In this document: positions 10,093 through 57,226 of the stretch, piece by piece
Layout: every line of letters starts with the position of its first letter
Position numbering within the stretch: position 1 is the first letter of the stretch
Assembly (NCBI GenBank): GCA_030390025.1
Contig: CM059432.1
Span: 69,752,001 to 69,816,000, forward strand
Direction of reading: 5' to 3'
Length of the DNA stretch: 64,000 bases
Source: Squalus acanthias
Lineage: Eukaryota
Program-made: the position numbers and the translations under genes
The notes under the pieces: model-generated
The model's database searches: none
What the model was told of the DNA's origin: nothing
The model's input: the letters and a program-made list of their open reading frames with translations, nothing else

Positions 10093-10974
10093 AAATTATC
10101 TTTTTCTATTTTACATTGATCCAAACAATATTGTGGTCAATATTTCCCAACTATTCTCCTAATTTAGCATCAGTTATTTGCCCCATTTCATTTCCAAAAA
10201 CAAAATTAAGAAATGCTTGTTGGGCTCGAAACATACTGATCTAGAAAATAATCGTGGATACATTCTAAAAAGCTTTCCCCACTTTGACCACATGCAATAC
10301 CTTTATCCCAGTCTATTTTGACTATTTTATACCCCCAATACTTTTTCCCTGTTGTTCGTACTTATCTGTGTTGTATAACGTTGTAATGAGAGAGCAGATG
10401 CTCTCAACATTAAAAATGAACAGAGTGGGGCTCTGCAAGTGCATCGAAGCATATGAGAGAACTCCTTTGTGGCTGACCTCAGTGTGACCTGCACCAATGA
10501 TCAGTGCACAGTGTACCATAGCAATCCACAGACACCTGTCCGAGGCGTGTTGCTGCAATATAACTGTATTGGTTAACACATGACAATGTTCAATCCTATT
10601 CGCAACCAGATATTTGTCCCACTTTTCTTTGAAGGAATTAATTGACACAGCAGCAACTGCTTTTGCTGGGTCTGGTCCCACTACTCTGCGCAAAAACTTC
10701 AACTCTGCTTGAGGCTTATTAATTTAAAATCTGTATTTTTTAGTCCTGCATTCAAAGTCCAAGTCAAATTGCTTATTTCTATTATATCATTTATGCCCTT
10801 CAGCAAGTCTAAGATTATAAGTCCCTTCTCAATCTGGTTTCCAATGAATACAACATCAATTTATCTTGTAATTTAAAGCCCTATGTCCCAGACCATTCTT
10901 GTCACTCTTCTTTGAACCTCTCCAACATGCTAATGTCCTTTTCAAATATTATTATGTACCTTAAACAACTTACC

Positions 10975-13133: not shown

Positions 13134-14218
13134 TTAGGGCTGTAGATAGGGCTTTAAACTAAATAGTGGGGGGGAGGGGTCAGGTGAGGAGAAATTTAGG
13201 AAGTTAAAGAGAACGGACAAGGCAATAGTGCAGGGTAGCGATAGGGGTAATGATAACCAGAGTGTGTCAGGAAGGGACAGAGCATGCAAACATAAGAGTG
13301 CACTAGCAAATAGGGCCAGAGTAGGGAAAAATGTTAAAAAGTCAAAATTGAAGGCTCTTTATCTGAATGCATGCAGCATTCGTAACAAGATAGATGAATT
13401 GACAGCACAAATAGAAATAAATGAGTATGATCTGATAGCCATTACAGAGACATGGTTGCAAGGTGACCAAGGCTAGGAACTGAATATTCAGGGCTATTTG
13501 ACATTTCGGAAGGATAGGCAGAAAGGAAAAGGAGGTGGGGTAGCTCTGTTAATAAAGGATGAGATCAGTACAGTAGTGACAAATGATCTTGGCTCGGAAG
13601 AGCAAGATGTAGAATCAGTTTGGGTGGAGATAAGAAATACAAAGGGAAAGAAGTCACTGGTGGGAGTAATCTATAGGCCCCCTAACATTAGCTACACTGT
13701 AGGACAAAGTATAAATCAAGAAATAATGGGGGCTTGTAAGAAAGGTACTGCAATAATCATGGGTGATTTTAATCTTCATATCGATTGGACAAATCAAATT
13801 GGCCAAGGTAGCCTTGAGGACGAGTTCATAGAGTGTATTTGGAATGGTTTCTTAGAACAATACATTGTGGAACCAACCAGGGAACAGGCTATTTTGGATC
13901 TGGTAATGTGTAATGAGACAGGGCTAATTAATGATCTCATAATAAAGGATCCTCTGGGGAAGAGTGATCATAACATGATAGAATTTCACATTCAGTTTGA
14001 GGGTGGGAAACTTGGGTCTGAAACTAGTGTCTTAAACTTAAATAAAGGCAATGACAAAGGTATGGAGACAGAGTTGGCTAAAGTGGACTGGAAAAATAGA
14101 TTAAATGGTAAGATGGTAGATAAGCAGTGGCAGACATTTAAGGAGATATTTCATAACTCTCAACAAATATATATTCCAGTAAGAAAGAAAGACTCTATGA
14201 GAAGGATCAACCATCCTT
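13134..14218 (+). mobile_element. CR1 LINE ORF2 endonuclease fragment
   Basis: LKALYLNACSIRNK..DLIAITETWL, GGGVALLIK, IYRPPN, IMGDFN, LGKSDHN (ORFs 13228-13476, 13498-14226). Same family as 34001-37051. Confidence 0.9.
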
Positions 14219-14219
14219 T

Positions 14220-14925
14220 TACATGACCACCATAATCATGCACAATTAGATCTGGCTTTATCACCTCACCCTCTCTGCTGCTTAATCTTCTTCCTACTCC
14301 AGCACCATCCCATCACATTTAACCCCCTTGAACCATCTTTCCCCTCTCCTACCATCCTCACCTCCATCATCAAGTGCAAGGTGTCATGGATTTCTATCTT
14401 CAAAAATGAGACCATCTACTCATCTGTCTCACTGTTCCCCTGCCCGCTGCTTCCCCTATTCACAAGCCTCCTGTTGCCTCCCTTATCCTAGTCCTGACCT
14501 ATGGTGGTCTGCAGCTTCTCCTCTATCTTCACTTGCCCTCATCAGGGTCATCTCCTCCATGAGACCTACTATGTGCTGCCTCAACTCTCTTTACACATAG
14601 CTTCTGACCATCCAATTACCTCACTTCAACCCAATGCTGTCATACATTGTCAACATCCTCCTTCTTTCAGGTGTTGCTCCCTCCAAAACTGTTGTGATCC
14701 CTTCATCTTAAAAAGCTCATCTTTGATCCCTTCACCTTTCCAACAACTGCTCCATTCCTAACCCTCCCTTCCCCTCGAAGGTCCTCCACTACACCACCAT
14801 CACCCAATTCAAAGCTATTCCTTCCCCATACTTATTATTCAGGTTGCTTCAGTCTGGCTTCCATCCTGTCCACAGCACTGAGACTGCCTTGTTCAAAGCT
14901 ACCAACGATATCTTGTGTGACCACA
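14220..14925 (+). mobile_element. Decayed L2-clade LINE RT fragment
   Basis: C/T-rich sequence ending in an L2-like QSGF.P.HSTETAL.KATNDIL segment (~14850-14915). Confidence 0.55.
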
Positions 14926-15025: not shown

Positions 15026-18000
15026 GGCCTAGAAATTCATGGGTTTCGTGCCGGTTGTTAAGGCCCAATTCAAGAAAAAAATGGCGGCCGCCACACTTAC
15101 GCCCACTACTGGCAGGTCCCACGGTGGCCACCATTTTTGGCTGGGCGGCAGCGCTGCTGATGTGTGCACTCGCTATCATTATGGAGATTATGCAAATCGT
15201 GATGTCAGTGAATGCGCAACGCACACTTGATGCCTGATCTGTCATTTTGGAGTGTACCGCACCTGTCTTAATTGCGACCAGCTTAACAAGGAGCTAGGAG
15301 GCTCCAGCAGTATTATTTAAAGGTATCATCAGCAACAACTTGCAGCTGTCATGTTTCTGCAGTTTGACTGGCTCTGTGGAACTTTCTGCAACTCTAACAG
15401 CTTTATAAACTTCTTTCAAGGTCCTAAGGTGACTGTGAGTGTTGGAACAAATGGAGGACGTCTTCATTCTTATTTAAAGACTTCTGCTCACAACACTTGC
15501 TCACAGTCATGGGGGCTCTACTGGCAGTCTCACGCTCGAGTATCTTCGGGAGAGGGAGCGGAGTCAGCGAAGAAGATGGGAAGATGCACGCAGAGGGAGG
15601 AGGAGGAGTGCTCTCAACAGGAGGCCTTACCCACCTAAGCTCTTCCGAGAGCACTTCTCGTATATACACTTAAGCGAGGTGCAGTGTATTAGGAGGCTTC
15701 ACTTCAACAAGGAGGTGGTCACAGAACTCTGCCACCTCCTACAACCAGACCTGCAGCCTGAGAGCAGGGTGACCATGGCTCCCCCAGTGGGCCTCAAGGC
15801 CACCGTGGCCCTCAATTTCTTTGCAAGCGGGTCCTTCCAGTCTGCAGCAGGAGACATAGCTAACATCTCCCAGTTCTCCGTCCATCACTGCATCCGGGAG
15901 GTCACAAAGGCTCTCTATACTGGGTCAAAATCCTGGACCTCCCTCCCTAACAGCACTATGGGGGTACCTTCACTACACGGGCTGCAGCGGTTCAAGACTC
16001 ACCACCTTCTCAGGGCAATTAGGGTTAGACAATAAATGCTGGCCTTGCCAGCGACGCCCACATCCAAGTAACGAATAAAAAAAAACACCAGGAGAAGGGA
16101 CTATGTTGTCTTCTCTCTGAGCAAAGAGAAGCAGGACGAGCATGCATTTGGCATTGCCAGGATAGCGGGTTTCCCCATGGTGCAGGGTGCCATTGACTGC
16201 ACCCAAGTGGCTTTGCGGGAGCCGCATAACAATCCTGAGATGTTCTATAACTGCAAAGGCTACCACTCACTTAATGTGTAGCTGATGTGTGACCACGCAC
16301 TGCGCATCCTGATGGTCAATGCCCGCTATCCAAGCTGCAGTCATGATGCCTTTTTCCTGCGTCAGTCCGGTGTGCCAGCAATCTTGCAGCCACCACGTCA
16401 AACCCGAGGGTGGCTGCTCACAGACAAGTGCTATCTGCTCTGCACCTCCGCAACCCCGACACTCGTGCCCAGCACTCATATAATGAGAGCCATGCTTCCA
16501 CCAGGAACATCATCGAGCAGACCATCGGGCTGCTGAAGCATCTGTTCCACTGCCTTGACCGCTCGGGAGGAGCCCTCCAGTACTCAGCGGAGTGGGTGTC
16601 CCATATCGTGGTGGTCTGCTGCATGCTTCACAACTTGGCCATCATGAGGGTGCAGCCCTTGCCAGCAGGGATTGCGGGACTGCCTCAGAAAGAGGAAAAG
16701 CAGGAGGATGAGGAAGAAGAGAGGAGGCAGGCAGAAAATCTCTCTTCAGCAAGAGCTGTCCGTGAATGCCTCATCAGACTCCGATTCCAGTGAATGAAAC
16801 CCCAGAAGCCCGTTGCTGACCATATCCTCATTAACCACACCCCTATCATACCATCCCTCTGTCATGGAATATCACAGCGTCCTCCTGGGCACAAAGCTCA
16901 AATGAGAGCCACCACAAAACAAACATTCAAACAAAATTATTAAATTGATCAACAATCAATTCACAAATACTATATCAACTAATCACCCTTGTGCGATCCC
17001 TTAGTGCCTGTCCTTCGGGTGCCCTTTCCTGCTCTAGTGCTCTGGTGCTCCTGCAAAGTGGTCTCCCAGTGACTGCAGCATTGCTGGTGGAAAGCTGCTG
17101 AGTTTCCATGGGGAGACTTAAGATGGCCAGGCAGGACAACCTCGAGCAGTTCTGGACCCATAAGGCCCAGTTGTAGACTGCATAAATGCAAGTCTTTCTT
17201 TGCACCACCGTGGCATGAGCGGCAGCAGTCTGGGCTGGCTGGCTGACAGGCAGCGGCAAGGGCAATGATGGAATGGCAGTGGTGGGAACAGGAATGTTGT
17301 CATCCTGAGAGAGGACAGCAGGTTCCTGCTCCACAGACCCACTGCCACTTTCCCCGGGGCGGTGCCTCTGCATTCCTAGCAGTCTGTTGGGAGGACAGAT
17401 GGCTGGACTGCTGCGACATCCCGCAAGCCCCGTTTGACAGTGGTAAACCCAGCCTTGGTAGCAGCAGTCTGAGCTTGTGCAGCAGCAATCTAAGACTGCA
17501 TGAGAGCAGTCTGATTGAATGGGGCAGCAAGCTGAGACTGCAGGACAGCGGCCCATGCTTCTGCTGCAGCACTAAGAAGTTGGGTCATTTCTGCCTGTGC
17601 TGCAGTGGCAGCTGCGACATCGCCCATCATAGGCAGCATCATGTCTGGGTCGACACGGTCTATCCTGGAGTTTTGAATCTTTCTAGCCTGGAAATTATGG
17701 ACTCCAAGCTCTGCGCAAAGCCCCGACAATGTTGGAGGCGGACTCCTCCATGCTCCTTTACATTGCCAAGAGGCTCTCTGGCAGGCTTGCCATTGTACTT
17801 AGGAATTCAGTATACATACCCATCACCCTTCTTCTGAGGTCCTCATCTGAGTCCTGTGCAGCAGAACTCACGCCCGAACTCGTACTGCGGGAGCTGGCCC
17901 CCGAGCTACCCTATCCCCCTGGCCTTGCTGCAGCTCACGTGTGTCCAGTGCCTCACCCTGTGCAGATCCCGCTTCTACATTACCCTCCAAATTACGTGCA

Positions 18001-32205: not shown

Positions 32206-32969
32206 GGCCCAGAAATTAAACATGGATGGTTCCCGCGGGGGTAAGGATTCCCCGCGATATCGCACTCCGCGCCTACCTTTTTTTTGGGGCCCACACGAAC
32301 TTTAGTTTCAGAGCCTCTTCTTGTTGCAACCGTGCAGTGTGTGCCTATCCCAGAGGCGCAATTAGTTCGTGCGAGCTCTGGGATCACGTGATTCAGTTAG
32401 AGCCAATGGCAGCACACCATCTTTCATTCATAGTTTTGACGGCAAGAGCTGTCAAAGCTATGAATACTACAAACCCCCAAAAGAACAGCTAAACCTCAAT
32501 TAAATTTTTTTAAAAAGCCATCCCATTAATAAAATAAGTATAGTTAAATAAATTAACCACTTTAAACAAAAAATTAAATTTTTGAAAAAATTTAAAATCT
32601 TTTTAAAAGTTATAAAAATAAACTTACCTTTCTTTAAAGTCTCTAAAAAAGATAAACCTGTTGAAAAAAATTAAAAATAACACTTAATTAACTACTTACC
32701 TTGTTAAAAGGGGGTCCCACGCCTGCTTTCTTTATGTGTAAAATCTTCACCACTTACCTGCGCGTTCAAAGCTGAAAAAAAAACTAAGTGCACTGCGTGC
32801 GCACAACCTGTAGTGCGCACGTGGTTCACTTAGGAACCGCCCCCTTTGCAATTCACGAAGTGCCGGTTTCCCGCGCATGCGCAGTGCATGCAGGAAACCG
32901 GCAATTCGGGATCTAATACGCGAGAGTACACAGTGCGTACTCTCGCGTATTAGGTTCAATTTTCGGGCC
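32206..32969. mobile_element. Young Harbinger-type MITE, family A copy 2
   Basis: Same termini as 9332-10092. 3-bp TSD ATT. Near-identical internal sequence. Confidence 0.85.
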
Positions 32970-33582
32970 ATTGTATAGAGTCATGCATTGTTATTTATTT
33001 GTATTTTGCTTCTTTTTTTTCATAAATGCTGTCAGGATAGGTTTGAAATACATGAGATTTTATTAATATGGAAAGATATGGGAAGAAAAATATATGAAAA
33101 GAAAGTTTTTTCTAGGGACATTATGCCAGAAGCATAGGATTTTTCAGTCCAGTAGGTGTTTTTGTAATATTGAAGAGCTTGTGGTCCTGCAACCACTGAT
33201 GAATATCAAGTAAATTTAATTTAAATCATTTTGAATGTATCAATTAAAAGCTTGTATTGTGGGAACAGAAATGCTTAGATTTAGCCAATTCCACTCCTCA
33301 GTTCAAACTAATTCAGATTATTTTATTAACTTTCATAATCAGACATTAATGACGTGTACAATAAAAAACAGACTGATTCACATAAATAGAAAAAAAAATA
33401 CAAATGCTGGAAATCTGAAATAAAAGCAAAATTGCTGAAACTTCACAGCATTTGTAAGGAGAAAAGATGAGTAAACAAATCAGGTTAGACCCTTCATCAT
33501 AATTCTTCGGAGAATGGTTAACTTTGAATTGGTTTTCTTCGATGTACTATAGTTTTGATTGTTACTATTTTGTACTGTACAG

Positions 33583-34000: not shown

Positions 34001-37000
34001 TAAATAGTGGGGGGAGGGTCCAGGTGAGCAGGAATTTAAAAAGTCAATGAGAAATGAAAAACCAATAGAGCAGGATAGAGATGGGGGAAAATAATAACCA
34101 GAGTGTGACAGGAAGGGACAGAATGTTTAAAAATAAATGTGCAACAGAAAATGGGGTAAAAACAAGGAGAAATGGTAAAAAGACAAAGTTAAAAGCTCTA
34201 TATCTGAATGCACGCAGCATTTGTAACAAGATAGATGAGTTGACGGCACAAATAGATACAAATGGGTATGATCTGATCGCCATTACACAGACGTGGCTGC
34301 ATGGTGACCAGGGCTGGGAACTGAATATTCCAGGGTACTTGACAATTCGTAAGGATAGACAGAAAGGATGGCTTTGTTGGTAAAGGATGGGATCAATGCA
34401 GTGAGAAGTGATATTGGCTCAGAAGATCAAGATATAGAATCGGTTTGGGTGGAGATAAAAAATAATAAGGGGAAAAGTCTCTGGTGGGCGAAGTCTACAG
34501 GCCCCCAAACAGTAGCAATACTGTTGGACAGAGTATAAATCAACAAATAATGAAGGCCTGTAAAAAAGGTACGGTAATAATCATGGGTGATATTAATCTC
34601 CGTATTGATTGGACAAATCAAATTGGCCTTGGTAGTCTTGAAGAGGAGTCCATAGAGTGTATCTGGGATGGTTTCCTAGAACAATATGTAATGGAACCAA
34701 CCAGGGAACAGGCTATCTTGGATCTGGTACTGTGTAATGAGACAGAATTAATAAATGATCTCATAGTAAAGGATCCTCTAGGAAAGAGTGATCATAGCAT
34801 GGTTGAATTTCAAATTCAGTTGGAGGGTGAGAAAGTTGTATCTCAAACCAGTGTCCTGATCTTAAACAAAGGCAATTACAATGGCATGAGGGCAGAACTG
34901 GCTAAAGTGGACTGGAAAAATAAATTAAAGGGTAAGACTGTTGAAATGCAGTGGCGGACATTTAAGGAGATATTTCATAACTCTCAACAAAAATATATTC
35001 CAGTGAGAAAGAAAGATTTTAAGAGAAGGGAGCACCATCCATGGCTAACTAAGGAAGTAAAGGATGGTATCAAATTGAAAATGAAGGCATACAATGTTGC
35101 CAAGATTGGTGGGAGGTCAGAGGATTGGGAAATTTTTAAAAACCAGCAAAGGATGACTAAAAAAATAATAGAGAGAAGATGAATTATGAGAGTAAACTGG
35201 CAAGAAATATTAAAACAGATAGTAAGAGCTTCTACAGGTATATAAAAAGGAAGAGAGTAGTTAAAATAAACGTTGGTCCCTTAGACGATGAGACTGGGGA
35301 ATTAATAATGGGGAATGGGGAAATGGCAGAGACTCTGAACAAATATTTGGTATCTGTCTTCATGGTAGAAGACACTAACAACATCCCAATAATGGACAAT
35401 CAAGGGACCATAGGGAGGGGGGAACTAAAGACAATCACTATCACTAAGGAAAAAGTACTTGGTAAAATAATGGGACTAAAAGTCGACAAGTCCCCTGGAC
35501 CAGATGGCCTGTATCCCAAGGTCTTAAAAGAAGTGGCTGCAGAGATACTGGATGCATTGGTTGCAATATACCAAAATTCCCTGGACTCTGGAGAGGTCCC
35601 AGCGGATTGGAAAACCGCAAATGTAGCACCCCTATTTAAGAAAGGAGGGAGACAGAAAGCAGGAAACTATAGACCAGTTAGCCTAACATCTGTCGTTGGG
35701 AAAATGCTGGAGTCCTTCATTAAGGAAGCAGTAGCAGGGCATTTGGAAAATCATGATGCAGTCAAGCAGAGTCAGCATGGTTTATGAAAGGGAAATCATG
35801 TTTAACAAATTTGCTGGAGTTCTTTGAGGATGTAACGAGCAGGATGGACAAAGGTGAGCCAGTGGGTGTGGTGTATTTGGATTTCCAGAAGGCATTCGAT
35901 AAGGTGTCACATAAAAGGTTACTGCATAAGATAAGAGCTTACGGAGTTGGGGGTAGAATATTAGCATGGATAGAGAATTGGCTCACTAACAGAAAGCAGA
36001 GAGTCGGGATAAATGGGTCATTTTTCGGTTGGCAAACGGTAACTAGTGGGGTGCCACAGGGATCGGTGCTGGGGTCTCAACTATTTACAATCTACATTAA
36101 TGACTTGGATGAAGGAACTGAGTGTAATGTAGCCAAGTTTGCGGATGATACAAAGATGGTTGGGAAAGCAAATTGTGCAGAGGACTCAAAGAATCTGCAA
36201 AGGGATATAGACAGGCTAAGTGAATGGGCAAACATTTGGTAGATGGAGTATAATGTGGGAAAGAGCGAGGTTATCCACTTTGGCAGGAAAAATAAAAAAT
36301 AAAATTATTATTTAAATGGAGAGAGATTACAAAATGCTACAGTTCAGAGGGACCTGGGGGTCCTTGTGCATGAAACACAAAAAGTTAGCATGCAGGTACA
36401 GCAAGTAATCAAAAAGGCAAATGGAATATTGGCCTTTATTGCAAGGGGGTTGGAGTATAAAAGCAGGGAAGTCCTGCTACAACTGTACAGGGTATTGGTG
36501 AGACCACACCTTGAGTACTGCGTACAGTTTTGGTCTCCATATTTAAGGAAGGATATACTTGCATTGGAGGCAGTTCAGAGACGATTCACTAGGTTAATTC
36601 CAGAGATGAGGGGGTTGACTTATGAAGAAAGGTTGAGCAGGTTGGGCCTATACTCATTGGAATTTAGAAGAATGAGAGGTGATCTTATTGAAACATATAA
36701 GATACTGAGGGGGCTCAACAAGGTAGATGCAGAGAGGATGTTTCCCCTCGTGGGGAAATCTAGAACACGGGGGCATAGTTTCAGAATAAAGGGTCGCCCT
36801 TTTAGAACTGAGATGAGGAGGAATTTCTTCTCTCAGCGGGTCATAAATCTGTGGAATTCTCTGCCCCAGAGAGCCGTGGAGGCTGGGTCATTAAATACTT
36901 TTAAGGTGGAGATAGACAGATTTTTGCAAGATAAGGAAGTGAAGGGTTATGGGGAGCGGGCGGGGAAGTGGCTTTGAGCCCAAGATCAGCCATGATCTTA

Positions 37001-46120: not shown

Positions 46121-46184
46121 CCGACCCCTGTAGCAGAGTTCTGGATGAGCTCAAGTTTACAGAGCATGGAGGATGGGATGCTTG

Positions 46185-47789
46185 TGTAAGGGATACTCTC
46201 CTGACCCTGCGTGTCTCGTAACCTGTGAGGTTCACGCGGCTCTGTGCAGCCTGTATGTCAGTGCGGGTCTAGGCCTGGTCTCCAGCCAGTCTGGGAACAC
46301 TAGACACCCCTGTGAGTGGTTCGAATCACTCTCCCTTACGGTTCTAGACACTGGACTTAGATGCGAGAGCAGTAATGGAGATAAAACTCATGTAGACTTG
46401 GTTTGAACGGTACGAAATGGAAAATCTTTATTGCATGATACTGAAAATTATGAAATACATGTCATATGCACAGATTAATGACAGTACAATCTTACAAACA
46501 GTTATAATCACTCTTAGGGAAACGAGGAACGACCAGCACAACGTAAATAGGGCACACATTACAAATATCCTTAATCTTTAAAACCCTCCCCTATTAATGT
46601 CTATCCTAAAACTAGCTTCGTAGGATCCCGAGACTCATGCTCACCACTCGTAATAACTCGGAGAAATCCCGAATAGCTGATCGGATGTTTTTCACCGCAG
46701 CACCCACGTGTTGGTCAGGAGATCTCCTGGTCCCACTTGTTTACTGCTTCTGCTGCTCGGTCAGTCGGCTGGACCGTCCGCTGTAGTGAAGACCTCTGTT
46801 GGTGGGCTTCAAAGTTTAATCGTGGAGCACCGTTGTCAATATCACTGATACGATGTGTTTACACAGTCCAGTTATCATTGATGCAATATGTCTTGTTAAA
46901 GAAGAAAACTTCCTGTCGAGAAGACTTGGCTGATCGACCTACAGGCGCGGTCGGGATTTACTGACCGTGGCGATGGATAAGGTCTTCTTCTCTTCTCCTC
47001 TCATCTCATCTCATCTCATCTCATCTCATCTCGGGCCTTCGGTTCCGCTGCCAGCTACCAACATAGGTCTTTGCAACAGTCTTTTACACAGGAGCAGCCA
47101 CGATGATAACAGCAACAAGCGGCAAGAGTCAAGAACACGAGGCAAGAGCCAAGAGCAAGAGGCCAGAGAGAGAATGGACGGTTTGGGGCCTGCAATTATA
47201 GTGCACAGTTCTTCCGTTTCCCGCCCAACTACAATGTCCATTCTTTTGTTTAAGGTTTGGCGCCCAAAAATGTCCTGTACGGGTGATCTCTGTCCTTAAT
47301 GGGTTTCGGGGCTACTCCTGAATGTTTGAGTACCTGTTAATATTTCTCCCATTGTTAAATCGGTCGGTGTTCCCCCTGGAGGGGTTTGGGGCTTCCAAGT
47401 GTCCTGTATAACTACCTGCTAACGGCTCTCTCATCGTAGAGCCGTTGGGAGTTTACATACTAATGTCCTTTGGATGGGCCCTTGATGGCTTTCCTTTGTA
47501 CCTGGGAGACCGATTCCAGTATCGATGTTTATACTGTAAACCCATAATGTCCTGTGTATTGTCTTCACTGTGCTGAATCGTTATCGATCTTGCAAGAATG
47601 TTTATTGGAACGCCATCTTGTCTGCCTGTTGAAAAGTCTAGAATGTTCTGTCACGAGGTGCGGCGGCCATTTTACAGGCTGCTTGTGTCCAATTTAAACC
47701 TGACAGCATTCTGCTGAAATAAAAGCTGTTTGAACGAAACTTTGTGTTTTCTCCTTATTAATCAAATCGCGATAATTGCGAATTCTACA
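46185..47789 (-). repeat. 3' LTR (1605 bp)
   Basis: Direct repeat of 53827-55426. Starts TGTAAGGG and ends ATTCTACA on +. Six TCATC units. Confidence 0.95.
46427..46432 (-). terminator. Candidate poly(A) signal AATAAA of the 3' LTR
   Basis: TTTATT on +, ~240 bp from the outer end of the LTR (same site at 54069-54074 in the 5' LTR). Confidence 0.55.
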
Positions 47790-47800
47790 GTCCCTCCTGT
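47790..47800 (-). other. Polypurine tract (ACAGGAGGGAC) abutting the 3' LTR
   Basis: Purine-rich stretch immediately 5' of TGTAGAATT on the minus strand. Confidence 0.7.
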
Positions 47801-48213
47801 TGATGCGAATAACTCCGCTTATCGTATCAAAAATCTCAGTGGTGAGCAATCTTATCTCGATTTCACTCCGAATCCAGTAAATTAATCCCATAAAATTTTA
47901 ACTTGACTAGGGTCTCTGTGTCGTCCTTATTTCCCAAGAAAATCACATTTTATATCACCGTAGGCATCATTTGCCCTTAAACTTACACCACTTGTTTTCC
48001 TTTCCGGCGTAACCAGGCCGATACCTCACGCATCACCTGTATATTTGTCTTTTATTCAAGGGAAGGAAAAACAAAACCCAAAAACCAAACAATCAACACC
48101 ATCACCAAAATAAACAAATCCCAACTCTTAAACATATCGAGTTTCCAACGTATTTACAGTGAGTACAAACTTCCGCGGCGCACGTGGCGAGCGGGAGTGA
48201 CGCCGTTTTCCCA

Positions 48214-50565
48214 TTACACTGCGCTCTCATCGTGCACGCGCACGTAACGTTCTCGCCACTCTCCCGTGTTCTCATGCTTGGTGAGGCGTTTGTCTCTTTT
48301 ACAATGTATGAACAAAAGGTATACTACAATAAACACTTGACAGACGACTAAAATGTGGGAGGCTATTCTGACCCATGAGGGCACTTCAATATTCGTGAAC
48401 AGATTCCACCACGGTGGAACCACTATGTCCAAAATGTCTGTACCTATCTCGACGGTTTTCTGTTCTAATGTATAAAAATGCTTTTGTGACACCGCGACGG
48501 CTTTCAGAAGTTTGGTTAAATGCTCGGGGAGAGGGGGAATGAGGTACCCAAAATGTGCGACAAATCGCTGCAAGTCGGTAAAATTCTCTTTTACTGTGAG
48601 ATGAACAGTGGATGGTTCAGGGATTGGGATAATTCGCTGTTGTGCTACTTGAACTTCAGCCCTGGGTTTAAAACAGAAACTGCTGTCACTCACCGGACAC
48701 CGGCTACGGTTTCCATGCTGGTAGTGTTGCGCTGCAGTGGTAACACAGTATGTTCCACCCCCGATGTATGCTACCTGCGGAGGCACATGATCTTGTGCCA
48801 TTGCCTCCATGGTGCAATTCATGGACTTGGCGCCAGCCGTTCTGAACCCGCACTGTGGTGTTAAAAAGGCATTCAAGTGCTGGGGGCACAGTATTATGTG
48901 TGCTCCCCTGCCACGACAACCAGAGAGATCTGTACCTGTCATCGTTTGCTCCCAGCGGATGACGTAAGGTGGAACCGCTGCATAACGAATGTGGGCTCCC
49001 CCCTGAATGACACCAATGTTCTCTACCCGATACACCGGGGCGGGCTTTGCTGTGTTGCCCAAAACCGGCATGCGTAATACTATTCCCATAATAGTATGGT
49101 TTGAACGTCCGCAGTCCACGGGGACTGGGTAAGCTTCTGAAGCTAGCCTGAGCTGGCACGGACTTAATGCATTCTGAAAAGGGTGGAGCGCCCGCAGGTG
49201 TTTGTTACTTATCCAGGACGGAACCAAACCTTGTTTTAAATCCTCCAAATTACTGCGGCCCTCGCCCAGTAACCACGCCCCGTAAAGCACGCACACCTCG
49301 TTCTGCGCAGCTTGATCGGATGCATTCCGATCTTCCCTAATCAGGGCATTTACCGTACGCGCATGTTTCTCCAGCTCTGCTATGATTTCCTTTAAGTGGA
49401 GTGTCATGGCTTGGTCCTCGTGCAGACCCGACCCTACCACTTTATTCTCATCTGTAAGAATATCCTTTAACTGTGTTTTTAAACCATTAATCTGGGTCTG
49501 CAGCTCCACACTGTCTAGAGCGTTGACCACAGATGTCCCTGTGTTAAAAGCAGTGAACGCATCGTTCACCAAACCCCTTCTTTGCCTCCCAACTTGATCC
49601 AAAACTTCCTGCGGTGCGGTGTACAAACTTGTCTTATCAATTTCTGCAAAATCAAACTCGTAAAATTGCCTGAACATCTTGGTCAACAGGACCTGGTACA
49701 ACTGTTCCGTCTTTTTGGGGCACCACTCTGGTAACCGTACCTCAGTGAGATTTAAAATCACCGAGGCCACCGCGTAATGCACTCCCTGAAATAGTATCTG
49801 GTCTGTGGGGACCAGTACCAAACCGTTCCCGGGTCCCTTACTAGTTTTAGGGCACCCTTCTTCCTCAGTTAGAACTACCGGAATCGTGGGCGGGGCTTTG
49901 CGTGGGCGCGTAATGAGCTCAGTGGCATTTACTGGGATCGGAGAGTATGGGGCTCCGCACCCCCTGGTGCTCGCATCCCACCTCATCCCCTGTCCGTTAT
50001 CCTGCCACTGGTTAATAAAGAATATGGAGATGCCTTTGGGGCAAACGTACTTTGACCCCCACATACAAACATAAATCCCCTCATCCGGTTCCCACCATTT
50101 GTCCCAACAGACTTTCACTTGTCCATCTGTCCCCGTAATTGTCCGATGGGTATTATTACCCAGTCGCTCCCACTCAACCGAAGAGTTCCTCATAGTTTTG
50201 CTCAGCTTTCGCAGCCACCACCATCGGCTCAATGGGACATTCCCACTGCAGGTCAAACAAATCCGTTTGCCGACGGTGACGCTGATCCTGGGTGCGATGA
50301 TCCGTACTTTGGGGCACATTAAAGAAGTCTCTTTGTAGGCGAACCCCGATGTGCTGGAATACTCCGTTGAGTTCGTTCCCAGCCATCCTGGCCACCTTCC
50401 CTTGTGGAAATAGGTGCTGGTCCCTTCTGCCTTCCGTCTCCCGGTCCCATCCACCGCGATGGGGGCCGTGTCCCCGGAACATCCAAACACCACGACATCC
50501 TTGGTGAGGCCCCGATAGGCCAATCCACATCCGATTGCCGCGAGCAATACTATGAGTCGTTCCAT
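48214..50565 (-). CDS. env: Env-like class I fusion glycoprotein, 783 aa, with N-terminal Ig-like domain
   Basis: Signal peptide MERLIVLLAAIGCGLA. Ig signature VTVGKRICLTC..W..DEGIYVC. Furin site RQRR (aa 327-330) followed by a fusion-peptide-like GLVNDAFTAFNTGTSVVNAL and heptad repeats. Cys-rich region, TM IASHILVVCQVFIVVYLLFIHC, and basic tail with YVRV. Several N-glycosylation sequons. Confidence 0.9.
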   Translation of the reverse strand: MERLIVLLAAIGCGLAYRGLTKDVVVFGCSGDTAPIAVDGTGRRKAEGTSTYFHKGRWPGWLGTNSTEYSSTSGFAYKETSLMCPKVRIIAPRISVTVGKRICLTCSGNVPLSRWWWLRKLSKTMRNSSVEWERLGNNTHRTITGTDGQVKVCWDKWWEPDEGIYVCMWGSKYVCPKGISIFFINQWQDNGQGMRWDASTRGCGAPYSPIPVNATELITRPRKAPPTIPVVLTEEEGCPKTSKGPGNGLVLVPTDQILFQGVHYAVASVILNLTEVRLPEWCPKKTEQLYQVLLTKMFRQFYEFDFAEIDKTSLYTAPQEVLDQVGRQRRGLVNDAFTAFNTGTSVVNALDSVELQTQINGLKTQLKDILTDENKVVGSGLHEDQAMTLHLKEIIAELEKHARTVNALIREDRNASDQAAQNEVCVLYGAWLLGEGRSNLEDLKQGLVPSWISNKHLRALHPFQNALSPCQLRLASEAYPVPVDCGRSNHTIMGIVLRMPVLGNTAKPAPVYRVENIGVIQGGAHIRYAAVPPYVIRWEQTMTGTDLSGCRGRGAHIILCPQHLNAFLTPQCGFRTAGAKSMNCTMEAMAQDHVPPQVAYIGGGTYCVTTAAQHYQHGNRSRCPVSDSSFCFKPRAEVQVAQQRIIPIPEPSTVHLTVKENFTDLQRFVAHFGYLIPPLPEHLTKLLKAVAVSQKHFYTLEQKTVEIGTDILDIVVPPWWNLFTNIEVPSWVRIASHILVVCQVFIVVYLLFIHCKRDKRLTKHENTGEWRERYVRVHDESAV

Positions 50566-50578
50566 CCTTCCTTGGTTC

Positions 50579-50600
50579 CTGTGATCAGATAGAATGAGGT
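50579..50600 (-). promoter_or_regulatory. Candidate splice acceptor for env mRNA
   Basis: Minus strand CCTCATTCTATCTGATCACAG|GAACCAAGGAAGGATG: pyrimidine-rich tract and CAG|G 13 nt before the env ATG. Confidence 0.5.
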
Positions 50601-50849
50601 AGCCAGCCTCGCAAAAAGTCTCTGGCTTTTGTGAAGGGTGAGCGGGTCCCCTGACCTCGCCTCACGTAAACTTCAACGTTTGCTAAATAGACTTCCTCTA
50701 AACCTAGCCTTAAAACTCCCATCATTTTGTCGTTATCTGTTAAAAACACTACAAACTTAACCTTATTAAAACTACTTAAAACTTTAAACTAAAACTTAAA
50801 ACCTTAAACTAATAACTTTACAATGCCGCCCGTTCTCAGGGCGGCCCCT

Positions 50850-52010
50850 TTAAATCCTGAGAAGGCTGCTGCGAGCTCTTCCCGACGGTGGGAGGGCACT
50901 GACCCTTCCCTCTGATCTGCCGCAGCCTGTTGCTGCGCTGACCCTTTCCTCTGATCTGCCGCAGCCTGTTACTGCTTCGATGTGGCCTGTCTCTACCCGG
51001 GTTATCTTAACCTGAAACTTACGCCCTGGGGCAGCCTGTGGACCTGACCACATCTTCCTGGGCTGGGGTACTCTGCTTGACCTACGGGGAATTGCTATGG
51101 GCGGGGGCTCCGTGACGGACGGACCGGGTTCCGAGACCTCCAACGGGATGACCTGGGGTTCCATCACAGTCGCCAGCTCCGCCTCCGCTGACTCCGCCTC
51201 CCTAACCTCGGGGCTGGCAGTTCGTGGCCCCGCCCTGCTCGGCCCAGCAGGCAGCCCTTCACTCGTGAACTCTGCCTCCCCTGAGGACTGGACGTTCAAA
51301 GCGGGCGGCCACACCTCTGGGAACCACATAGCGGCTGGCCCGGCCTCCTCTAGCTCCTTCCTCCTGCTGTCGGGACCTGCAGCTTGTGTGTCCACCCCGT
51401 ATGGATCTCTACCTAGCGGCCCCAATCCTTCCAGACCGTTCCTCTGAAACCACCCGTCATCATCACTATGCTCATCTGCACTATCCTCATCTGACCAGGG
51501 TACCCTGGGTTCTTCGTCATCTAACCCCCAACTCCAGAAAAACGCTGCATGATCGTCCGGGATGTCCCTTCCCCTGATGCAAGCTGCTACGCCTGCCTGT
51601 GTGCCTTGTGGTCCTACCTGGGGCTGTGTTTCCCCACTCGCAGGTCTGGCCCCTCCCTTAAGACAGGCCACCGCCCCTGCTTGTTTCTGTGAAATCTCAC
51701 CTGCTGGAGGCTGCAGATTTCTATCCTGTTTTAAATCCTCATACTCCCTGCTCCTGGCTACCCTGTAGGCTGTTTTTATCTCTCTAAGCTGCCCTTCTAG
51801 CCTGAGCACGTCTAACTTTCCCATTGCTCGGGCGTTCTCCTCCCGCAAGGTCTGCTCTCTAAGCTGCCCTTCCAGCCCATCTATTTTCCCTATTAAGCGG
51901 GCGTTCTCCTCCCGCAAGGCCTGCTCTTTTAACCTGGCCTCCTCACCGCAGACCCCCTCCTGTGCGTGTCTTTTAAAAGGACACAGGTAGGCAGGCTGCG
52001 TGGGCTCTAG
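50850..52010 (-). CDS. ORF-X: 386-aa non-enzymatic extension in frame with gag (putative Gag-X readthrough product, 990 aa)
   Basis: After the gag TGA the frame stays open: LEPTQPAYLCPFKRHAQEGVCGEEARLKEQALREENARL... (31 codons before the TTG at 51917 used by the ORF track). Coiled-coil repeats, then acidic/Pro-rich sequence. No D(T/S)G protease, YxDD RT, RNase H or integrase core motifs. Confidence 0.75.
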   Translation of the reverse strand, partial: LEPTQPAYLCPFKRHAQEGVCGEEARLKEQALREENARLIGKIDGLEGQLREQTLREENARAMGKLDVLRLEGQLREIKTAYRVARSREYEDLKQDRNLQPPAGEISQKQAGAVACLKGGARPASGETQPQVGPQGTQAGVAACIRGRDIPDDHAAFFWSWGLDDEEPRVPWSDEDSADEHSDDDGWFQRNGLEGLGPLGRDPYGVDTQAAGPDSRRKELEEAGPAAMWFPEVWPPALNVQSSGEAEFTSEGLPAGPSRAGPRTASPEVREAESAEAELATVMEPQVIPLEVSEPGPSVTEPPPIAIPRRSSRVPQPRKMWSGPQAAPGRKFQVKITRVETGHIEAVTGCGRSEERVSAATGCGRSEGRVSALPPSGRARSSLLRI

Positions 52011-53822
52011 TCATTGGGTACTATTAGACGGTCCTGCGGCACCTACGGGGCCGGTTGCGACCGCCACCTGTCCACGCGCATTCAAAACCATCTTGCGCAT
52101 GGCTCCTAACACTGCTTCGAGGTCGTCGGGAGGGGTGGGTGCCTTTGCTTCCTTAGGCGGGACAGGCGCCTGGGCTCGGACCGCGGGATTTTTATCCTTG
52201 GAATCCTTCCAAGGGTTCCTGCAGTGCTTGCGCCAGTGCCCTGTCTTCCCACACCCGTAACAGGCATTACTTGCCTGTGGGGCGCGATTACCCTCCTGAT
52301 GCCACTCTCTTTGAGCCGGGGCTGCGGGTCGTACCTCATGTACTCTTCCCTTAAAGGGACGTGTCGTCATACCCCTTATGTTACGGTAACCTAACGTGAG
52401 TCGATTCAAGACCGACTCTTCCGTAAGGTTGAGGTCATTGGGATCGAACCAGGCTTTTGCCTGCTCTCTAACGGCTGGTAAACTGTTGGCTATTATGCAC
52501 CTAAGCCAATGAATTAAAGCGGCGCCTTCCACATCTTCGCGCTCGGGCGCACCTAGACAGCTGCGCTCATATACTGGCCACAGCCTGTCGGCAAAAACCT
52601 TCGGGGGTTCTCCCTCCATCTGCACTGTCTGTCCCACTCTAGCAAACGGACCTCCGTCGTTCGCTCCCACTACTTCTAGGACCTCATTTTTCAATTCCTC
52701 ATAACTTTTATTACCCCTCTTGCTATCGCCTGAGAGACACTGAAGGACCGAGCTATCTAACGAGAACAGCAGCATTTTTGCTGTCTCCCCATCATCGCAG
52801 CCGTTGATGGCTGCGGCTTGCTCAACTTCCCTAAAATGTACGGAAGGGTCGTCTATCTCGGTCAGCTTCCTTACGTGGTTTATCATGGCCCTCAGCTGAT
52901 GTGAACTGTGAGGCAACACCAGCTGTCCGAGGAGATCCCCCGGTTCTTCCCCACCGTTTCTGCTTGGGCCCCTTTTAATCCCCGTTACTGGATACAACGA
53001 TCCCTTTTCTACCTCCTTTTCAACGGGCTCTTTTGCTTCTTCCGTTGCTTCCTCCCTAACCCAGGTTTCTGAATAGCTGGGTGGCGCGGAGGGCGCAGTG
53101 GCTACTACTTCTTCTGCTTTACTTGGTGGGGAATTTCTAAATCTCTCATTTACTAGCGGCTGGCGTGCCGACGGATTAATAAGGCACACCATGCCGTTCG
53201 CATTATTCACGGCCTTTTTGAGGCTCTCTATCTCTTTTTCGCAGGCGCTATGGTCGGCTCCCTGAAACTTATCCTCAAGGGCCAACTTATACGCCGACCT
53301 AACCCCCATTAAGCTCTCTTCTTGAGTTCTTATCTGGGCAGCTTGACGGTTACATCTTTCCTTCATCCTACTCTCGTTTAATTTTGCTTCAGTGATCTGG
53401 CACTCGAGATACTCTACCCTTGTTTTAAGGTAACTGGAGACTTCCTGGCTTTCCTGGCGTAACTCATTTAAACTCTTAATGAGCGCCTCCCCTCCAGAAA
53501 CCTTCTCCTCCATTTCCTCCTCTAGATGCTTGATTCGAGCGGTTAGCGCTGTATTGGTCTGGTTTGAAATCTGAACCTGCCTTTTGTAGCACATAAGCCA
53601 GACTGCTTTCTCAACTGCCTTTTTATGCTCCTTACTATCCGTCCACCTTTCAGCTGCCTCTAGTGGGCTCTTATCCGCTAACAATTCGCTTATCCACTTT
53701 TTCGTTAGATTAACCTTTCCAAATACGTAATCCGCTATCTTTTCCTGCATCACATTTCGTACAGTCATTCCAAAATCTAACACACTACCCTCTCGCTGCC
53801 AGTGTCCTGCCGCGGTCGCCAT
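52011..53822 (-). CDS. gag: Gag polyprotein, 603 aa
   Basis: Directly after the 5' LTR/PBS. N-terminal coiled coil (~aa 85-205), PSAPPSY late motif (aa 244-250), helical capsid-like region, CX2CX4HX4C knuckle CYGCGKTGHWRKHC (52221-52262). Confidence 0.9.
   Translation of the reverse strand: MATAAGHWQREGSVLDFGMTVRNVMQEKIADYVFGKVNLTKKWISELLADKSPLEAAERWTDSKEHKKAVEKAVWLMCYKRQVQISNQTNTALTARIKHLEEEMEEKVSGGEALIKSLNELRQESQEVSSYLKTRVEYLECQITEAKLNESRMKERCNRQAAQIRTQEESLMGVRSAYKLALEDKFQGADHSACEKEIESLKKAVNNANGMVCLINPSARQPLVNERFRNSPPSKAEEVVATAPSAPPSYSETWVREEATEEAKEPVEKEVEKGSLYPVTGIKRGPSRNGGEEPGDLLGQLVLPHSSHQLRAMINHVRKLTEIDDPSVHFREVEQAAAINGCDDGETAKMLLFSLDSSVLQCLSGDSKRGNKSYEELKNEVLEVVGANDGGPFARVGQTVQMEGEPPKVFADRLWPVYERSCLGAPEREDVEGAALIHWLRCIIANSLPAVREQAKAWFDPNDLNLTEESVLNRLTLGYRNIRGMTTRPFKGRVHEVRPAAPAQREWHQEGNRAPQASNACYGCGKTGHWRKHCRNPWKDSKDKNPAVRAQAPVPPKEAKAPTPPDDLEAVLGAMRKMVLNARGQVAVATGPVGAAGPSNSTQ
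53804..53821 (-). promoter_or_regulatory. Primer binding site, tRNA-Arg type
   Basis: Minus strand TGGCGACCGCGGCAGGAC, 5 nt inside the 5' LTR boundary. Complementary over 18 nt to the 3' end (...GTCCTGCCGCGGTCG-CCA) of a vertebrate tRNA-Arg(UCG) as I recall its sequence. Confidence 0.85.
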
Positions 53823-53826
53823 TTTC

Positions 53827-55426
53827 TGTAAGGGATACTCTCCTGACCCTGCGTGTCTCGTAACCTGTGAGGTTCACGCGGCTCTGTGCAGCCTGTATGT
53901 CAGTGCGGGTCTAGGCCTGGTCTCCAGCCAGTCTGGGAACACTAGACACCCCTGTGAGTGGTTCGAATCACTCTCCCTTACGGTTCTAGACACTGGACTT
54001 AGATGCGAGAGCAGTAATGGAGATAAAACTCATGTAGACTTGGTTTGAACGGTACGAAATGGAAAATCTTTATTGCATGATACTGAAAATTATGAAATAC
54101 ATGTCATATGCACAGATTAATGACAGTACAATCTTACAAACAGTTATAATCACTCTTAGGGAAACGAGGAACGACCAGCACAACGTAAATAGGGCACACA
54201 TTACAAATATCCTTAATCTTTAAAACCCTCCCCTATTAATGTCTATCCTAAAACTAGCTTCGTAGGATCCCGAGACTCATGCTCACCACTCGTAATAACT
54301 CGGAGAAATCCCGAATAGCTGATCGGATGTTTTTCACCGCAGCACCCACGTGTTGGTCAGGAGATCTCCTGGTCCCACTTGTTTACTGCTTCTGCTGCTC
54401 GGTCAGTCGGCTGGACCGTCCGCTGTAGTGAAGACCTCTGTTGGTGGGCTTCAAAGTTTAATCGTGGAGCACCGTTGTCAATATCACTGATACGATGTGT
54501 TTACACAGTCCAGTTATCATTGATGCAATATGTCTTGTTAAAGAAGAAAACTTCCTGTCGAGAAGACTTGGCTGATCGACCTACAGGCGCGGTCGGGATT
54601 TACTGACCGTGGCGATGGATAAGGTCTTCTTCTCTTCTCCTCTCATCTCATCTCATCTCATCTCATCTCGGGCCTTCGGTTCCGCTGCCAGCTACCAACA
54701 TAGGTCTTTGCAACAGTCTTTTACACAGGAGCAGCCACGATGATAACAGCAACAAGCGGCAAGAGTCAAGAACACGAGGCAAGAGCCAAGAGCAAGAGGC
54801 CAGAGAGAGAATGGACGGTTTGGGGCCTGCAATTATAGTGCACAGTTCTTCCGTTTCCCGCCCAACTACAATGTCCATTCTTTTGTTTAAGGTTTGGCGC
54901 CCAAAAATGTCCTGTACGGGTGATCTCTGTCCTTAATGGGTTTCGGGGCTACTCCTGAATGTTTGAGTACCTGTTAATATTTCTCCCATTGTTAAATCGG
55001 TCGGTGTTCCCCCTGGAGGGGTTTGGGGCTTCCAAGTGTCCTGTATAACTACCTGCTAACGGCTCTCTCATCGTAGAGCCGTTGGGAGTTTACATACTAA
55101 TGTCCTTTGGATGGGCCCTTGATGGCTTTCCTTTGTACCTGGGAGACCGATTCCAGTATCGATGTTTATACTGTAAACCCATAATGTCCTGTGTATTGTC
55201 TTCACTGTGCTGAATCGTTATCGATCTTGCAAGAATGTTTATTGGAACGCCATCTTGTCTGCCTGTTGAAAAGTCTAGAATGTTCTGTCACGAGGTGCGG
55301 CGGCCATTTTACAGGCTGCTTGTGTCCAATTTAAACCTGACAGCATTCTGCTGAAATAAAAGCTGTTTGAACGAAACTTTGTGTTTTCTCCTTATTAATC
55401 AAATCGCGATAATTGCGAATTCTACA
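53827..55426 (-). repeat. 5' LTR (1600 bp)
   Basis: Direct repeat of 46185-47789 with five TCATC units. Followed on the minus strand by the PBS. Confidence 0.95.
54805..54900 (-). promoter_or_regulatory. Candidate LTR core promoter (TATA-like, Inr-like, two E2F-consensus sites)
   Basis: Minus strand TATAATT (54837-54831), CCATTCT ~25 nt downstream. TTTCCCGC (54854-54861) and TTTGGCGC (54893-54900) just upstream. Confidence 0.45.
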
Positions 55427-56079
55427 CTTGCCTGGAGAATATATAAAAAGTCAAATCTGGAGGTGACAAAGGCATGGATGAGAGTTTCAGCAGCAGATGG
55501 ACTGACACAGACATGCTGTTTTAGTGCCAGTGCCACTTCCCTCCAGATGGCATGAGTGACAGTTCTAGCAAGTCTCCTGCCATGGACACCCAACAGTCTG
55601 TGGTCTAGTAAGTTGGGGGTTTAGCGCCGGGCGTTACCACCCAAATCGGGAAAAAAATGGCAGCCACTGCATTTCCGCACACTGCCGGCGGGTCCCGTGG
55701 TGGCTGCCGATGTCCGTGCTCACTACACTTATGGAAATTATGCAGATCGTGTCATCAGTGAGTGTGCAATGTCTACTGGATGCCCGATCTGCGATTTTCC
55801 AGTTCGCCTCTCCACTTACTGGCCTGTCTTAATTGCGACCAGCTGAGCAAGCGTTGACAAGCAGCTAGGAGGTTCCAGCAGTGATATCTAAAGGGATCAT
55901 CAGCAACAACTTGCATCTAACATGTTTCTTCAGGTTGACTGGCTCTGTGCAACTTGCTGCAACTCCAGCAGCTTTATAAACTTCTTTCAAGGTCCTAAGG
56001 TAACAGGGAGTGTTGGTGCAAGTGGAGAACGTCTTCATTCTTATTTAAAGGCTTCTGCTCACAACACTTGCTCACAGTC

Positions 56080-57226
56080 ATGGGGGCTCTACTGGCAGTA
56101 CCCCCTCGTGCTCGAGTATCTTCGGGAGAGGGATCGGAGGCAGCGAAGAGGAGAAGCTGCACGCAGAGTGAGGAGGAGGAGGGCCAGGTGAGCTCTCAAC
56201 AGGAGGCCTTACCCATCTAAGGTCTTCCGAGACCACTTCTCTTATATCCACTTAAGCGAAGAGCAGTGTATTAGGAGGCTTCGCTTCACCAAGGAGGTGG
56301 TCACAGAACTCTGCCACCTTCTGCAACCAGACATGCATCTGGAGAACAGGGCAACCACAGCTCTGCCAATGGCTCCAAAGGTCACCGTGGTCCTCAATTT
56401 CTTCACCAGCGGATCCTTCCAATCTGCAGCAGGAGACATAGCTAACATCTCCCAGTTCGCCATCCATCGCTTCATCCGAGAGGTCACAACGACTCTCTAC
56501 ACCAGGAGAAGGGACTATGTTTTCATCTCTCTGAGCAGAGAGAAGCAAGAGGAGCATGCATCTGGCTTAGCCAGGATTGCGGGCTTCCCCTTGGTGCAGG
56601 AGGCCATCAACTGCAACCACATGGCTTTGCGGGTGCCGCATAACAATCCTGAGACCTTCCGTAACCGCAAAAGCTACCACTCATTTAAGGTGCAGTTGTT
56701 GTGTGACAACAACCAGCATTTCCTGATGGTCAATGCCCGCTATCCTGGCAACAGTCATGATGACTTCATCCAATGTGCCAGCAATCTTCTAGCCACCACG
56801 TCAAACCTGAGGGTGGCTGCTTGGAGACAAGGGCTATCCTCTCTGCACCTGGCTCATGACTCCTCTCCACAACCCCAACAGTCGTGCCCAGCACTCCTTT
56901 AATGAGAGCCATGCTGCCACCAAGAACATTATCAAACAGACCACGGGCTGCTGAAGCAACGGTTCCGCAGCTTTGACCGCTCGGGAGGAGCCCTCCAGTA
57001 CTCGGCGGAGCGGGTGCCCCATTTTGTTGGGGTCTGCTGCATGCTTCACAACTTGGCCATCATGAGGGCGCAGCCCCTGCCAGCAAGGATTGGGGGACCA
57101 CCTCAGGAAGAGGAAGCGGGAAAAGAGGAGGAGGAAGACGAGGAGGAAGGGAGGAGGCAGGCAGAAAATCCCCATTCAGCATGGGCTGTCCGTGAATGCC
57201 TCATCAGACTCCGATTCCCTGAATGA
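56080..57226 (+). pseudogene. HARBI1-like DDE transposase, disrupted
   Basis: MGALLAV..RR*ALNRRPYP..FRDHFSYIHLSEEQCIRRLRFTKEVVTELCHLLQPD..FTSGSFQS..GFPLVQEAINCNH..NRKSYHS..YPGNSHDD..LGDKGY..CCMLHNL. Premature stop and frameshifts. Confidence 0.85.

Follow-up and report, generated by a model that had tools for sequence, protein, structure and literature searches.

The locus

The window analysed here, 64,000 nt of Squalus acanthias contig CM059432.1, carries on its minus strand an endogenous retrovirus (ERV) with two long terminal repeats (LTRs), gag, env and, in the place of pol, an open reading frame (ORF-X) that continues the gag frame behind a TGA stop (Table 1). An earlier note on this DNA had taken ORF-X for a foreign, non-Pol protein substituted for Pol. 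That reading did not survive comparison with other copies in the genome: ORF-X is an internally replaced pol, about 275 of its 386 codons being pol sequence. To judge from sequence, a presumably leaky stop and the open frame behind it likely allow such a copy to be translated past the stop and to spread by means of enzymes that intact relatives supply.

The junction itself is as the note described it: gag ends in ACC CAA TGA CTA GAG, the frame then stays open for 386 codons to position 50850, the TTG at 51917 is codon 32, and the first in-frame ATG is codon 63. Gag comprises an N-terminal coiled coil, a capsid-like region and one CCHC knuckle; its features match retrotransposon Gag/zinc-knuckle clusters (0.93), and Pfam gave no match to it. 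The LTR pair shows 1 mismatch and one 5-nt gap over 1,608 aligned nt.

Table 1. Features of the pol-less element, in window coordinates
Feature	Position	Strand	Remarks
LTR element	46185-55426	-	9,242 nt in total
5' LTR	53827..55426	-	1,600 nt, ends TG...CA
3' LTR	46185..47789	-	1,605 nt
Target-site duplication	55427-55430 and 46181-46184		4 nt, CTTG
Primer-binding site	53804..53821	-	18 nt, matches host tRNA-Arg(TCG) at its 3' end
gag	52011..53822	-	603 aa from ATG at 53822; ends in TGA
UGA-CUAG stop context (type II readthrough motif)	52007..52013	-	gag stop TGA at 52013-52011
Predicted stem-loop	51941..52004	-	+10 to +73 after the stop
ORF-X	50850..52010	-	386 open codons after the gag stop
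ORF-X codons 1-11	51978..52010	-	what is left of the start of Pol; the protease active site would follow downstream
ORF-X codons ~16-95	51727..51965	-	in-frame sister-family gag coiled coil; 23-aa unit duplicated
ORF-X linker, codons ~96-122	51645..51726	-	common to older pol-less subfamilies
ORF-X codons ~123-386	50850..51644	-	post-integrase Pol tail, acidic, Pro/Gly/Ser/Ala-rich, with the stop
env	48214..50565	-	783 aa from ATG at 50565; RQRR cleavage motif; C-terminal hydrophobic segment
Short polypurine tract	47790..47798	-	adjoins the 3' LTR

ORF-X is a pol frame with a replaced centre

Searched genome-wide as exact motifs, the autonomous-type junction gave about 829 matches and the young pol-less one about 733, and the design seen in the window is shared by these 733 or so young copies and by several hundred older ones. 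Behind the same stop, 14 of 20 loci picked from gag hits carry a long pol-type region, and the pol frame is open over 1,494-1,511 codons in 18 of 20 autonomous copies. One of them (L066) has a 1,507-aa Pol frame with protease, reverse transcriptase (RT), an RT-linked RNase H-like domain, RNase H, integrase and a tail, and its Pol ends in the same residues as ORF-X. Between the two types, gag, env and LTR are 93-97% identical. The protease lies right behind an L-E-P-x-Q-P-x-Y-L-C-P start, as the earlier note had anticipated for an autonomous relative. The same stop stands before a full Pol in these copies, and the window junction corresponds, again as supposed there, to a gag-pol readthrough junction.

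The match of ORF-X to autonomous pol on the 5' side stops 11 codons past the gag stop, and window 51644-50850 is 98.2% identical over 795 nt to an autonomous copy (L158). The stretch between these two ends finds no match in the autonomous copy. With Pol matches at both ends and donor gag in the middle, ORF-X is made up of a Pol start, a Gag coiled coil, a linker and a Pol tail; we are close to certain of this anatomy and that of the element as a whole. The linker is absent from 36 of 60 young copies, which cross into the end of integrase instead. No protease, RT, RNase H or integrase domain was found in ORF-X by Pfam, and the missing enzymes are all encoded in the partner Pol, which makes the pol-less type a non-autonomous ERV. 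It was amplified after the loss of pol: the 733 matches are dispersed, and the window copy has its own duplication and near-identical LTRs.

Database searches with ORF-X returned little. Against Pfam, both ORF-X and Env gave sub-threshold matches only; a homology search with whole ORF-X yielded 0 matches among 8,000 candidates of 212-676 aa, and its coiled-coil part, searched against 1.8 billion representatives, gave just 2 weak coiled-coil matches. As sources of the filler, a frameshifted protease and a copy of the element's own gag gave no significant match and were discarded; the source is a sister family. Identity of ORF-X with the smc gene of lokiretroviruses was likewise rejected, as smc precedes gag there and the RT of the autonomous partner resembles that of snakehead retrovirus (SnRV). 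No hidden gene was found in the other frames of ORF-X, none of which shows constraint.

The autonomous Pol tail extends ~270 aa past integrase (L066 pol codons ~1240-1507) and is acidic, Pro-rich and open; the database relatives in the Pol comparison are without it. In one copy (L062:6762-7521) a 753-nt repeat is inserted in ORF-X, and two more copies of that repeat family lie in the window at 9332-10094 and 32206-32970.

Origin and history of the pol-less lineage

Where did the middle of ORF-X come from? An exact search of the genome with the filler motif gave 1,122 matches, compared with 733 for the young pol-less junction, and 49 of the extra loci, on contigs C1 and C2, were fetched. In six the motif lies in a sister-family gag, within its N-terminal coiled coil, and 43 are pol-less copies, nearly all of older subfamilies, of which 37 could be parsed and 6 could not. 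The donor is an older autonomous family known from degraded copies (L176, L179, L184, L208, L214, L216). Its gag matches window 51941-51727 at 79-83% DNA identity, its Gag is 36-38% identical to that of the element over 156 aa, and it has a TGA CTAG protease junction of its own (2 seen).

The oldest pol-less copies have a single coiled-coil unit and a longer Gag piece, and their gag and env are ~70% identical to those of the window. Despite this divergence, the cassette of the window is 83-87% identical to that of the old subfamilies. In later forms the 69-nt unit is duplicated, a block is lost, and there are two crossover points into the Pol tail. On a tree of the tails, young pol-less copies are interspersed among autonomous ones, 25 of 56 lying within 1% of an autonomous tail; the two types have recombined. 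The intermixed tails, together with the persistent cassette, suggest that the cassette was inherited while the backbone was exchanged with the current autonomous partner, as has been described for bovine ERVK C/D, MusD/ETn and recKoRV (PMC10924933).

Several pol-less copies lie ~7.7 kb apart (G000 C1:143657905, 143665628, 143673346 and others), a spacing consistent with head-to-tail tandem copies with a common LTR. The element (window 47800-54600) is covered by each of the coded sequencing runs X1, X3, X5 and X9, which are labelled organisms A, B and C. A contig labelled organism B reads across the pol-less junction and differs from it at 2 positions in 207 nt; the pol-less form is therefore not peculiar to a single label.

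The junction and its predicted stem

UGA-CUAG belongs to the type II class of readthrough motifs (PMC13517186). TGACTAG is present in 20 of 20 autonomous copies, in both sister-family junctions seen, and in 57 of 60 young pol-less copies, which were chosen by a motif without the stop. The older layer is less uniform (24 TGA CTGG, 12 CTAG and 1 TTGG among the 37 parsed copies). The earlier expectation that the motif and frame would be kept among copies thus holds for the young copies, 56 of 60 of which are also open in frame, and not for the motif in most older ones. UGACUG is a natural readthrough context in alphaviruses (PMC13517186), so the CTGG junctions of older copies need not be dead.

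The possible stem noted ~25-50 nt downstream is there as a predicted hairpin, CCTGTGT/GCACAGG at +27 to +55, and forms the top of a longer predicted stem (Table 1), for which pair probabilities in the window type are mostly above 0.9. An equivalent stem is predicted at +10 to +70 in autonomous copies. Stability is modest, with z -1.2 for the 80 nt from the stop and a second value of -1.5; a post hoc window of +10 to +72 gave -2.9 and -2.4. Covariation is thin, a change on both sides occurring in only 1 of 17 pairs. The 5' arm is pol-derived, and the 3' arm of pol-less copies is donor-gag sequence that pairs by happenstance; its being a simple homologue of the autonomous arm was rejected, as it is donor-gag sequence in the old copies. 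Over +10 to +72 the predicted folding energy is weakest in donor-like old copies (-12 to -14 kcal/mol), passes through values of -19 to -23 and is strongest in the window (-26.5), with -27.3 in an autonomous copy, a modelled series that would fit selection for a stronger stimulator.

The frame is held more firmly than the sequence

The young copies analysed are 60, taken in list order from the first 100 listed places of the 733. Of these, 56 keep ORF-X open up to its common end, 50 have an open gag and 45 an open env, and the length of ORF-X ranges from 368 to 410 codons. Among variants shared by two or more copies, 0 of 238 variant codons of ORF-X are stops where 9.6 were expected (P about 7e-5); in the remaining five frames, 4-21 columns hold stops. 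In the 58 copies entering the gap analysis (two had no end anchor), 13 of 16 gap runs in ORF-X are multiples of 3 and two more add up to one 33-nt crossover, compared with only 14 of 56 in the intergenic stretch. Distances from stop to tail within the part specific to pol-less copies take 5 values, all in frame; older copies add spacings of 168, 237 and 243 nt, in frame except in one single copy, and 21 of 37 older copies read 290 codons or more.

Selection on the amino acids is another matter. For shared variants, gag (46 copies) has a ratio of nonsynonymous to synonymous rates (dN/dS) of 0.32-0.36, env (18 parsed copies out of 45 with an open frame) one of 0.05-0.06, and the Pol enzymes (18 copies) one of 0.07-0.08; gag and env are under purifying selection in pol-less copies. 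For ORF-X it is 1.14-1.28 (56 copies), and for the autonomous Pol tail 1.24-1.38, with singleton variants of ORF-X at 0.58-0.65. The amino acids of ORF-X are thus weakly or not constrained by purifying selection in young copies. A dN/dS near 1 in an open frame means that the frame is held more firmly than its sequence.

Comparison with known systems

On present sequence evidence the element is best read as a member of an SnRV-like family. The RT motifs of the autonomous partner (QGVLR, VNS..WPV.KPD.SWR.T.DYR, LDISNGFWSI.L, QQYTW..LPQGFH.SP.IFHQ) agree, in a comparison by eye, with the SnRV row of an alignment in the supplement of PMC7947760, where LDISNGFWS was seen in SnRV rows only. The best RT database matches are amphibian and coelacanth elements at 51-53%, plus one at 91%. 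SnRV and the element both have an in-frame gag-pol stop and a single zinc knuckle (PMC2717909), and ERVs of the SnRV clade have been reported in fish, elephant shark among them, and in coelacanth (PMC4977317, PMC12193657). The two differ at the junction, UAGGGC in SnRV and UGACUA with a predicted stem here, and in the cytoplasmic tail of Env (136 aa in SnRV, PMC12193657; about 35 here); the ~270-aa post-integrase tail and the large pol-less partner family further set this family apart from SnRV. Lokiretroviruses and zebrafish Bhikhari resemble it in an N-terminal Gag coiled coil, pol-less members, and an Env with RxxR and coiled coils, but their RT rows differ by eye from the motifs of the element, and lokiretroviruses were found in 0 of 6 cartilaginous-fish genomes (PMC7947760).

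As a junction, UGACUAG with a predicted stem from about +10 resembles the alphavirus type II arrangement, whose stems begin at +9 to +16 (PMC13517186). The retroviral junctions listed in the accessible part of the same source are UAG-GGA/GAU/GGC and UGA-AGA/CGA/AGU, without UGACUA, and the putative retroviral use of UGA-CUAG in an SnRV-like lineage is apparently undescribed.

Among defective elements, mouse IAP 1delta1 is alike in that an internal deletion leaves an in-frame chimeric ORF, enzymes come in trans, and the element amplifies beside its parent; it differs in having lost part of gag and in a constitutive fusion, whereas the present element keeps gag and env whole and under purifying selection, with the chimeric frame behind a retained, presumably leaky stop. 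Bovine ERVK[2-1-LTR] C/D, MusD/ETn and KoRV-A/recKoRV also have a centre swapped for an old retroelement piece between kept flanks, and recombination between competent and defective types (PMC10924933). Those defective types are without intact genes, whereas gag, env and the replacement frame are mostly open here. Outside subscription journals and repeat databases, which lay beyond the search, we found no published account of this family, nor one of a pol-less ERV that keeps its readthrough junction, and the accessible parts of PMC5210030, PMC10435555 and bioRxiv 2024.03.25.586437 hold nothing on the family.

Other features of the element and the window

The primer-binding site begins 5 nt past the LTR (53804-53826), and its first two bases are also part of the gag ATG; the first Gag residues are encoded within the site, and a leader between it and gag is absent. 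SnRV has a tRNA-Arg primer. The primer tRNA of this family, tRNA-Arg(TCG), has 427 matches in all, and on G000 C26 at ~39-42 Mb (L172-L174) it stands beside tRNA-Ser(GCT) in large tandem arrays with a period of ~1,623 nt.

Only two relatives of Env were found, one in skate and one in sawshark, which makes a cartilaginous-fish host likely. Its N-terminal part has a weak immunoglobulin-like match (PDB 1f97, E 0.99), and its Cys-rich C-terminal half recalls viral F proteins by eye; similarity to the paramyxovirus/pneumovirus F protein (PF00523) found no support in Pfam, PDB or Atlas, and the structure model from the single sequence was unusable (pLDDT 33). Past the ORF-X stop, 50588-50850 holds a GC hairpin, a U-rich tract and an acceptor-like TTTTTAACAG, and a 46-codon ORF starting MMGV precedes the env ATG, its own ATG being in frame with env in some copies. 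Exogenous SnRV has accessory ORFs expressed from spliced RNAs; here, between env and the 3' LTR, there is no ORF of at least 120 aa, the only size looked at, on the element strand. Elsewhere in the window, 15478-16793 and 56192-57138, and also 5216-7586, 13477-14226 and 34469-36977, hold fragments resembling Harbinger-type transposases and CR1-type LINE ORFs.

What keeps the frame behind the stop open?

Intact copies would make Pol by UGA readthrough, because gag and pol lie in one frame with a single stop between them. The same arrangement is found in SnRV and Ovex1, for which stop suppression is presumed (PMC2717909), and by this analogy with established knowledge readthrough in the autonomous parent is well supported. 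An ancestral template switch would then have swapped most of pol for an in-frame piece of sister-family gag, and the resulting cassette of stop, stem and coiled coil may have been inherited from one subfamily to the next, with gag, tail, env and LTR being exchanged each time with the current autonomous partner. With a Gag of 603 aa and an open frame of 386 codons, stop suppression would yield a protein of 990 aa. From the sequence we infer that readthrough in the element gives this Gag-X at a low rate, with the enzymes supplied in trans by intact copies. Selection would keep mainly the translation of the open frame behind the stop, more than a specific protein sequence, a step on which the evidence seems to us equally divided. 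The gain in cis may lie in RNA stability, by protection from the nonsense-mediated decay (NMD) that follows a long 3' untranslated region, or in cis-preference in packaging. The longer the frame downstream of a readthrough element, the more the element shields its mRNA from NMD (PMC5360307), and the gag-pol fusion of IAP 1delta1 acts in cis (PMC7411935, PMC6466679). Taken together, the view of this element as a defective, pol-less ERV copy that is complemented in trans and helped in cis by low-level Gag-X translation is the one we favour, with an even chance of being right.

Several observations weigh against it. CTGG stands at 24 of the 37 older junctions, yet at only 3 autonomous-type junctions, and in young copies TGACTAG is kept no better than its neighbours (3 of 420 versus 16 of 2,160 sites changed). 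The stem series was scored partly on a window-derived structure and is biased towards the window. The 3' region is estimated at 5.6 kb, of which ORF-X takes up only 1.2 kb; protection from NMD would thus be partial. Two pairs of old copies have common early ends, at 154 and 168 codons. Codons 1-92 of ORF-X, taken alone, have 0 stops against 1.3 expected, which is not significant, and much of the no-stop signal may stem from selection in autonomous copies, since these exchange tails with the pol-less ones. Finally, in 23 older single-unit copies, codons 25-62 have a dN/dS of 0.24 (10 synonymous and 6 nonsynonymous shared changes, p 0.005), which points to a protein.

This last value speaks for a second explanation, possible but clearly less probable and close to the idea of the earlier note, that Gag-X functions as a protein: readthrough would equip a few Gag molecules with an acidic tail and another coiled coil of the Gag type, and these molecules would co-assemble into particles and help the defective RNA to recruit or compete with helper Gag-Pol. 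The captured piece is exactly a Gag coiled coil, later duplicated in frame, and IAP 1delta1 offers, according to reviews, a precedent for a fusion protein acting in cis. Pairwise dN/dS between the window and old copies over codons 1-92 is 0.32-0.65, from pairs that are not independent and without correction for transitions. The older constraint on the coiled coil is still only a hint: the low block is one of five, three others standing at 0.78-0.94, its singletons give 0.88, and gene conversion from donor gag could also lower its value. In the 56 young copies the same region has a dN/dS of 1.3-1.5 (5 synonymous, 17 nonsynonymous), half of the captured piece is deleted in young subfamilies, and old and young tails are very divergent. 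Carried further, the cassette would be a long-lived parasite across backbones, encoding a decoy Gag-Pol with a second Gag-type coiled coil and, in the youngest copies, a rebuilt parent-like stem. We consider this unlikely; if true, the decoy would let pol-less genomes recruit or out-compete helper enzymes while supplying their own Gag and Env, and the stimulatory stem of the youngest subfamily would have been rebuilt out of gag-derived sequence.

Could the open frame instead be a passive relic, its stop context and tail refreshed by recombination with autonomous copies and its openness due merely to youth and to the open-frame origin of its pieces? Intermixed tails, nearly identical LTRs, a dN/dS of about 1, the relaxation of CTAG to CTGG in most older copies and the common early ends all agree with that. 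We nevertheless hold it to be improbable, since the capture junctions, the 69-nt duplication and the +6, -3 and -9 changes are all in frame, as are the block deletion and both crossovers, within a part that autonomous copies lack; moreover, indels in the adjoining noncoding stretch are mostly out of frame, and the cassette persisted across ~30% divergence in gag and env.

Very unlikely, finally, is that ORF-X or the Pol tail alone serves as an accessory protein made from a spliced RNA or an internal ATG, with the gag stop incidental: autonomous copies likewise have an open tail that evolves fast, as an accessory protein would, splicing in snakehead retrovirus is complex (PMC12193657) and the codon-63 ATG has a purine-rich context, but ORF-X has no acceptor-like pyrimidine tract (the only one found lies past its stop, before env), the frame is kept upstream of codon 63 as well, and that ATG sits in the duplicated unit that autonomous copies lack. 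No splice joint appeared in four coded sequencing runs, which covered 30 of 30 bins; as they consist of contigs only, this is evidence neither way.

The preferred reading, a trans-complemented copy aided by its own low-level translation past the stop, replaces the tempting picture of a new gene in the place of pol. According to the accessible review literature, readthrough has not been measured in the SnRV-like lineage. Work on NMD in murine leukaemia virus and on IAP 1delta1 has raised the question of whether a readthrough signal has a role for the RNA itself. Hundreds of young intact and pol-less copies, with older layers beneath them, coexist in this one genome, and because these forms coexist, the enzyme-making role of the readthrough signal would here be separable from its RNA role, be it in stability or in cis-preference.

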